The notes below the pieces were generated by a model, which saw nothing but the letters and a program-made list of their open reading frames with translations, did no database searches and was not told the DNA's origin. A DNA stretch of 64,000 nucleotides from Escherichia coli (GTDB taxonomy: Bacteria > Pseudomonadota > Gammaproteobacteria > Enterobacterales > Enterobacteriaceae): assembly GCF_003018255.1 (NCBI RefSeq), contig NZ_CP027441.1; one strand, 5' to 3'. Below, one piece after another: positions 60,685 through 60,800 of this stretch. The translations under genes and the position numbers were made by a program. The number at the start of each line of letters is the position of its first letter. The first letter of the stretch is position 1.

Positions 60685-60800
60685 TCCTTACCGGGGTGTC
60701 GGGGCAAAGCCCTGACCAGGTGGGGAATGTCTGAGTGCGCGTGCGCGGTCCGACATTCCCACATCCTGTCCCGTTTTTCGGTCCATTATAGCCTGTTATT
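60685..60800. other. oriT: origin of transfer (oriT) with NikA-binding inverted repeat and nick region
   Basis: CCGGGGTGTCGGGG...; inverted repeat GGGAATGTC...GACATTCCC at about 60723-60760; then CACATCCTGTCCCGTTTTTCGG, immediately upstream of nikA. Confidence 0.65.

Follow-up and report, generated by a model that had tools for sequence, protein, structure and literature searches.

The transfer origin of a pO113-like I-complex plasmid and its leader hairpin, a possible sequence-specific module of transfer origins

The transfer origin (oriT) of the IncI1 plasmid R64 offers the closest described system for the site examined here. The NikA binding site is marked on the R64 oriT in Fig. 1C of PMC4743918, and that paper reports that R64 mobilises a ColE1-type plasmid that lacks mob genes and carries copies of an R64-type oriT. 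According to a passage of PMC5863519 citing Furuya and Komano (2000), the inner arm of the R64 long inverted repeat is enough for initiation and the whole repeat is required for termination. By its title, the Furuya and Komano paper gives both sets of R64 oriT inverted repeats a part in termination. Nearer relatives are treated in PMC3817090, where the IncB/Z relatives pO26-CRL125, pO111-CRL115 and p3521, and pO113, are described as carrying the same oriT variant. This variant lies beside the nikA start codon; its 8-bp repeats are those of R64, and its 17-bp repeats diverge in step with NikA.

The DNA analysed here, called the window, is a stretch of 64,000 nucleotides from an Escherichia coli contig (NZ_CP027441.1). 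It is part of a pO113-like EHEC virulence plasmid and carries epeA, which encodes an autotransporter, a gene for a phosphoethanolamine transferase, and IncI-type trbABC. Over its last 24 kb (40000-64000) it shares 99.5-99.7% identity with pO113 (NC_007365, 99.5%) and related plasmids, which have epeA and a transfer region of the IncI type. A 301-bp query covering the oriT (60600-60900) matches 2,035 plasmids of the PLSDB collection, 123 of them at 99% identity or above. Nearly all come from Escherichia, Salmonella and Shigella and are typed as conjugative, and the best match is typed IncFIB + IncI-gamma/K1, MOBP and MPF_I. Comparison with the oriT of pO113 and the IncB/Z relatives revealed no difference. 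In this sense the window oriT is already known: many sequenced plasmids have an identical one, and for close relatives the architecture has been published.

The segment 60690-60781 is the oriT of this pO113-like I-complex plasmid and very probably works as the R64 oriT does. The initial annotation had proposed an R64-type oriT upstream of nikA with a NikA-type inverted repeat and a nick region. Alignment with the R64 oriT, the homology of NikA and NikB and an 8-nt spacing between repeat and nick all agree with that proposal, and every string it quoted was recovered in place when the sequence was read directly. The oriT sits directly upstream of a nikA-nikB operon that is transcribed divergently from it on the minus strand. 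The nikA gene (60345-60677, minus strand, an annotated CDS in NZ_CP027451) encodes a relaxosome accessory protein of 110 aa, 60% identical to R64 NikA, with a NikA-like DNA-binding domain (Pfam PF21983, E = 3e-19). Its start codon, read on the reverse complement, is at 60675-60677 and its Shine-Dalgarno sequence at 60684-60688. The open reading frame of nikB (57622-60333, minus strand) specifies a relaxase of 903 aa that is 73% identical to R64 NikB over its full length; the equivalent gene is annotated in PLSDB records as a relaxase/mobilization nuclease domain-containing protein.

The site has three parts, all read on the plus strand. Nearest to nikA, starting 16 nt past its start codon, is the sequence GGGGTGTCGGGGCAAAGCCCTGACC (60693-60717), here called the leader, which consists of GGGG TG and an 8-bp inverted repeat. 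The repeat would form a hairpin at 60698-60716, with arms GTCGGGGC (60698-60705) and GCCCTGAC (60709-60716), an AAA loop and a G.T wobble at 60701/60713. This second inverted repeat on the nikA side of the oriT has stems identical to those of R64; the two 8-bp repeats differ by one loop base. Next comes a long inverted repeat. A repeat search delimited its nick-distal arm (60723-60740), the equivalent of R64 repeat B, and its nick-proximal arm (60743-60760), the equivalent of R64 repeat A and the predicted NikA binding site. The outermost 9 bp are perfectly paired (GGGAATGTC, 60723-60731, with GACATTCCC, 60752-60760), and the arms extend imperfectly to 18 nt each, with 15 of the 18 positions complementary (83%). 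The nick region ACATCCTGTCCCGTTTTTC (60761-60779) follows directly 3' of the long repeat. It belongs to the ATCCTG/T type, as in R64, and the string CACATCCTGTCCCGTTTTTCGG (60760-60781) is identical in the two plasmids. The nick is predicted between G60768 and T60769 (ACATCCTG/TCCCGTTTTTC), with ACATCCTG before it and TCCCG after it. Since the nick region begins right after the long repeat, the predicted nick lies 8 nt (ACATCCTG) from the end of the proximal arm, the spacing that is reported for R64.

Folded as single-stranded DNA, 60686-60780 forms two adjacent hairpins with an energy of -26.7 kcal/mol. Shuffled sequences fold at -14.7 +/- 2.7 kcal/mol and none of 200 was as good (z = -4.46), so the structure is not a chance feature. 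A possible -10 box of a nikAB promoter, TATAAT, is present on the minus strand at 60786-60791. Read from the sequence, it may drive transcription across the whole oriT, from the nick region to the leader; its -35 element is poor, and it was not among the sites listed by a consensus promoter scan of 60600-61000. The consensus scan of the same interval gave a single weak promoter-like site on the plus strand and no terminator; the leader is thus not an intrinsic terminator. No Rfam family reached threshold on the window oriT, and the matches below threshold were noise.

Two features give independent support to the polarity of transfer. About 5 kb to the right of the oriT, on the minus strand, is the leading-region gene ardA (in the 100% identical record NZ_CP027451); R64 has the mirror-image order. 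The position of ardA on the 3' side of the nick supports nicking of the plus strand. Both hairpins are also more stable on the plus strand, the leader hairpin at -6.6 against -4.5 kcal/mol and the long repeat at -13.9 against -11.8 kcal/mol, which supports the plus strand as the one transferred.

For this oriT the binding of NikA, the position of the nick and the role in termination are carried over from the work on R64. By analogy, NikA would bind the nick-proximal arm (60743-60760) as double-stranded DNA and position the relaxase NikB, which would cut the plus strand 8 nt beyond the arm, at G60768/T60769, and remain bound to the 5' end. The plus strand would then be transferred 5' to 3' toward higher coordinates, with the leading region first and nikA, nikB, the leader and the repeats last. 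On arrival the trailing copy of oriT would be single-stranded, and its long repeat and 8-bp repeat would fold into the two adjacent hairpins, which may let NikB recognise the site and rejoin the strand.

The long repeat departs from that of R64, and so do the proteins that act with it. The window site was aligned with the oriT of R64 (upstream of nikA, NC_005014), of IncI-gamma and IncK2/Z plasmids and of a 2-kb plasmid. Neither the nick region nor the leader varies across these I-complex sequences, apart from a single loop base of the leader (A, G or T). Three I-complex types carry long repeats of wholly different sequence, each self-complementary, with both arms changing together: GGGAATGTC.../...GACATTCCC in the window, GCAATTGTAAT.../...ATTACAATTGC in R64 and GGTAATCGTATA/TATACGATTAC in the K2/Z type. 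The three corresponding NikA types differ mostly in the N-terminal half, which holds the NikA-like DNA-binding domain (residues 14-23 read KRIVKFTARF, QKTVVRTLRF and QKNVLIAVRF), and are almost identical from residue 66 onward. From one plasmid type to another, the repeat changes along with the N-terminal part of NikA while the C-terminal half is constant, a pattern consistent with a co-evolving, plasmid-specific recognition pair. By these alignments, the conserved core of the oriT consists of the nick region and the 8-bp hairpin. Because the long repeat, NikA and NikB all differ, recognition of the window oriT by R64 NikA is doubtful.

Over 60000-62200 the window is 96-100% identical to R64 in nucleotide sequence to the right of the nick, on the leading side, and 46-80% identical to the left. 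A switch this sharp, located at the nick, is the mosaic junction expected from recombination at oriT. To the left of the nick, the leader stands out as an island of identity to R64 inside a diverged long repeat, nikA and nikB. The 8-bp hairpin is conserved in its sequence and not in structure alone, and a purely structural role in termination would leave this conservation unexplained.

The leading side next to the oriT contains a further perfect 8-bp hairpin, found by the repeat search at 60833-60851, 65 nt 3' of the predicted nick (GGCAGGGC-GCA-GCCCTGCC; -10.2 kcal/mol, z = -3.6). The I-complex alignment shows it to be conserved, although 1 nt is deleted in R64, and it has the same core, GGGCGCAGCCCTG, as the ColE1 leader. 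The first leading-side gene (60910-61185, plus strand) encodes 91 aa and is 100% identical over 84 aa to a 111-aa protein of R64. It ends 20 aa earlier than the R64 protein, diverging after an A run at about 61160-61167, and the shortening is probably due to a homopolymer frameshift. Some records misleadingly annotate this protein as 'molybdopterin-guanine dinucleotide biosynthesis protein MobC'.

The leader has a counterpart in a second well-known plasmid, ColE1. The initial annotation had pointed out that the leader resembles the start of the ColE1 bom/oriT, and the resemblance is real: 22 of the 24 bases of 60694-60717 match ColE1 (NC_001371, minus strand 1521-1498, GGGTGTCGGGGCGCAGCCCTGACC) in the same orientation, and both mismatches fall in the loop. 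None of 200 shuffles of ColE1 matched the leader with three or fewer mismatches, and the leader motif occurs once in the 64-kb window. The upstream hairpin of ColE1-type origins, GGGTGTCGGGGC-N3-GCCCTGACC, is thus present in the window oriT, and in both plasmids the hairpin is found on the nicked strand, 5' of the nick. The 24-nt hairpin module is all that the two sites have in common. The ColE1 proximal repeat and nick region have no counterpart in the window, and the sequences beyond the leader do not align. The ColE1 nick, which we take to be at GTATACTGG/CTTAA, was searched for with up to two mismatches and not found anywhere in the window. ColE1 has rop between its oriT and its mobilisation genes, and its relaxase, MbeA, is of a family (MOB-HEN/MOBP5) different from that of NikB. 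The genes adjoining the window oriT are nikA and nikB and not mobilisation genes of the MbeA/MbeC type. Since neither the nick region nor the cognate genes fit, the window site is not a ColE1-type bom. In ColE1/pBR322 the leader might overlap the H-strand primosome assembly site.

The leader hairpin is found at many other transfer origins. An exact-pattern scan of GGTGTCGGGGCNNNGCCCTGAC (19 specified bases) over one genome per species gave at least 120 loci, with about 2 expected by chance on our own estimate; the count is of exact matches and carries no information on how often the motif has decayed. Among the matches listed, many Enterobacterales sites consist of the leader, a variable repeat and an (A/T)(T/C)C(C/T)TGTC nick region; others are ColE1-type sites, or other proteobacterial sites with repeats of their own. 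Also among the matches listed, the hairpin stands 19-55 nt upstream of relaxase genes of several phyla. These belong to two families, NikA-like plus PF03432 relaxase genes in Enterobacterales, a Proteobacteria MAG and an Acidobacteria MAG, and PF03389 (MobA_MobL) relaxase genes in Curvibacter and Paraburkholderia.

Two further samples were picked independently of the motif, one of NikB relatives found by tblastn and one of plasmids found by the ColE1 nick region alone. Among the NikB relatives the leader is present at 65%, 43%, 42% and 37% relaxase identity, the last being IncL/M, and in a Xanthomonas plasmid it takes the covarying form CTCGGGGGC/GCCCCTGAG. All five of the ColE1-type oriTs sampled have it, with a compensatory change from G-C to T-A at the outer pair in one subgroup. 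Counted over 13 sequences, 93% of the cells are paired; the outer pair is GC in nine, UA in two, CG in one and GU in one, and the G.T (G.U) wobble position is kept in 12. Since only the outer pair varies, formal support from covariation is modest and the leader is conserved mainly in sequence. In these comparisons the hairpin behaves like a module whose sequence is strongly constrained and which is found with several relaxase families.

One explanation is that the leader is a separate and widely shared oriT module, read in its sequence by a factor common to many transfer systems. The factor could be a host protein or a conserved component of the transfer apparatus acting on the single-stranded transferred strand, and the leader would then be neither a termination aid specific to NikB nor a mark of MOBP descent. 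The excess of exact matches over chance and their presence beside both PF03432 and PF03389 relaxase genes speak for a common factor. So do the retention of the leader in NikB relatives down to 37% identity and in every ColE1-type oriT sampled, its standing as an identity island in the diverged half of the oriT, the retained wobble and the covarying outer pair. Against it, no candidate factor is at hand, recent horizontal spread could mimic conservation, and the scan by exact matching is blind to decay. The module is also not universal. In three IncP-type and gonococcal MOBP loci sampled no leader hairpin was found; the relaxases of these loci are 26-30% identical to NikB over the matched region. 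The RP4/RK2-type (IncP) oriT shares with the window the ATCCTG nick core, an inverted repeat 5' of that core, and accessory and relaxase genes transcribed away from oriT. With these points weighed, a common factor is offered as a tentative explanation, held at somewhat less than even confidence.

A homologous hairpin is found in CloDF13. The nick of this plasmid is reported as GGGTG/GTCGGG (in a passage of PMC5935869 citing Nunez and de la Cruz 2001), and its MOBC relaxase is, according to PMC6736028, of an unrelated, non-HUH type. The nick string was located at 9752-9762, where GGGTG is followed by the hairpin GTCGGGC-GTGA-GCCTGAC. The hairpin has its G.T wobble at the same position as the leader and the same orientation relative to the mob genes. 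The leader of the window could therefore be read as a second nick site of the CloDF13 type, which would open the plasmid to MOBC-type mobilisation proteins as well, given that the CloDF13 nick string heads a hairpin homologous to the leader. The two versions differ, however: in CloDF13 one more G precedes a 7-bp stem that closes a loop of 4 nt, whereas the window has GGGTG-TCGGGG, with one G fewer, and an 8-bp stem. The reported CloDF13 nick is at the foot of the hairpin, whereas the nick predicted for the window by analogy with R64 lies about 70 nt downstream of the equivalent position. Moreover, the CloDF13 nick sequence comes from a secondary citation and the 8-bp repeat of R64 already has an assigned role in termination. 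A second nick at the leader is highly improbable.

The likeness to ColE1 had led the initial annotation to suggest shared MOBP ancestry, a suggestion that is too narrow and not demonstrated. On such a view the ColE1 resemblance reflects the common descent of MOBP-type origins, and the leader is a slowly evolving remnant of an ancestral oriT. The order and orientation of the parts are indeed the same in both plasmids (mobilisation genes transcribed away, leader, repeat, nick), and MOB-suite types both relaxases as MOBP. Nothing aligns outside the 24-nt hairpin, however, and neutral descent cannot hold 22 of 24 bases while the adjoining repeat and the proteins diverge beyond recognition. The proposal is too narrow because the 8-bp hairpin is the only common element, because it also accompanies MobA_MobL (PF03389, MOBQ-type) relaxases and has its homologue at the reported nick of CloDF13 (MOBC), and because the three sampled MOBP loci of IncP type and of gonococci lack it. 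Two contigs of the genome scan (L052 and L103) carry ColE1-type and R64-type origins side by side, each with a leader of its own, and exchange of modules would explain these equally well. Common descent is an unlikely source of the resemblance.

Some of the matching loci are of interest in themselves. Four small contigs, L052 (Flagellimonas pelagia), L103, L077 (Citrobacter youngae) and L105, each carry two transfer origins of different types with a leader before each; in L052 and L103 the ColE1-type and R64-type origins are on opposite strands. Enterobacterial oriTs of the small-plasmid and I-complex kinds also turn up in assemblies of unrelated taxa, namely L052 (Flagellimonas pelagia), L082 (Streptococcus parasanguinis), L053 (a Lachnospiraceae MAG) and L056 (a Collinsella MAG), most likely through contamination or mis-binning. 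L053 contains a window-type oriT with two substitutions in the stretch shown.

The same 22-nt motif occurs as well in intergenic repeat elements of many copies in Clostridia MAGs (L014-L040, L058-L073, L096-L102, L114-L128) and in Defluviitaleaceae (L086-L094), and in similar multi-hairpin contexts in Alphaproteobacteria (L010, L049). The elements of rumen Clostridia are about 290 nt long. In them, 2-4 nt separate an A/T-cored hairpin from the motif, which is followed by a second hairpin; the stem of this second hairpin covaries from copy to copy, and a terminator-like hairpin closes the element. The group II intron 5' consensus is GUGYG. Group II intron ends and tRNA fragments were rejected by eye as identities for the Clostridial elements, in which the motif reads GUGUC; Rfam has no family for the repeat elements that carry it.

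A further possibility is that the hairpin acts after transfer, as a single-strand initiation (ssi) signal. Its distance from the 3' end of the transferred strand is about 50-75 nt, and priming at that point would let the recipient copy the whole strand in one continuous stretch. I-complex plasmids carry a primase of their own, which weighs against such a signal, as does the motif in chromosomal repeat elements, which it would leave unexplained. In its favour, the hairpin sits immediately 5' of the repeat in all the relaxase families seen, it is strand-specific in its stability, and ssi signals are known on conjugative and ColE1-type plasmids (PMC7690428). The proposal is nonetheless pure inference, and the leader has no sequence similarity to a described ssi. 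A priming role is very unlikely.

What speaks for a common factor, for a second nick or for priming is, in each case, no more than the position and the conservation of the hairpin. That the hairpin RGGGTGTCGGGGC-N3-GCCCTGAC, with its nearly invariant G.T wobble on the transferred strand, is a distinct, sequence-specific module of transfer origins is accordingly put forward as possible, with the balance of judgement against it. If true, the module would span NikB-like and ColE1-type MOBP systems and MobA_MobL/MOBQ systems, between which nothing else is alignable, and a close variant of it would be the nick site of CloDF13. A common recognition factor or a common step of single-stranded DNA processing would then be implied. 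A limited search of the open-access literature found no published account of a hairpin shared across relaxase systems and no described function of it beyond termination in R64, and a text search with GGTGTCGGGGC and GTCGGGGC returned vector sequences and irrelevant matches only. The breadth of the leader hairpin across transfer origins may thus be unreported.

The boundaries of the oriT can be seen in a natural construct. NZ_CP065565, a ColpVC plasmid of 1,982 bp from Salmonella Albany, retains exactly the stretch from leader to nick region. It has two inverted copies of an I-complex oriT, at 1296-1381 (plus strand) and about 1630-1715 (minus strand), one with a window-type long repeat and one with an IncK2/Z-type repeat, and each with a leader and a nick region. 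No NikA-like or relaxase-like product is evident among its open reading frames. By its sequence it looks like an oriT-only hitchhiker that could use two helper specificities.

For the pO113-type EHEC virulence plasmids, the comparisons confirm at the level of sequence a relaxosome like that of R64, with a NikA and a repeat specificity of its own. This specificity predicts which small oriT-only plasmids they can mobilise, for example NZ_CP065565, which carries the exact window repeat. Beyond this family, transfer origins that depend on different relaxase families keep an 8-bp hairpin almost base for base. Should a single factor recognise it, the hairpin would mark a common, and therefore targetable, step of conjugation, and its sequence would be a useful tag by which to find transfer origins in DNA that lacks annotation.
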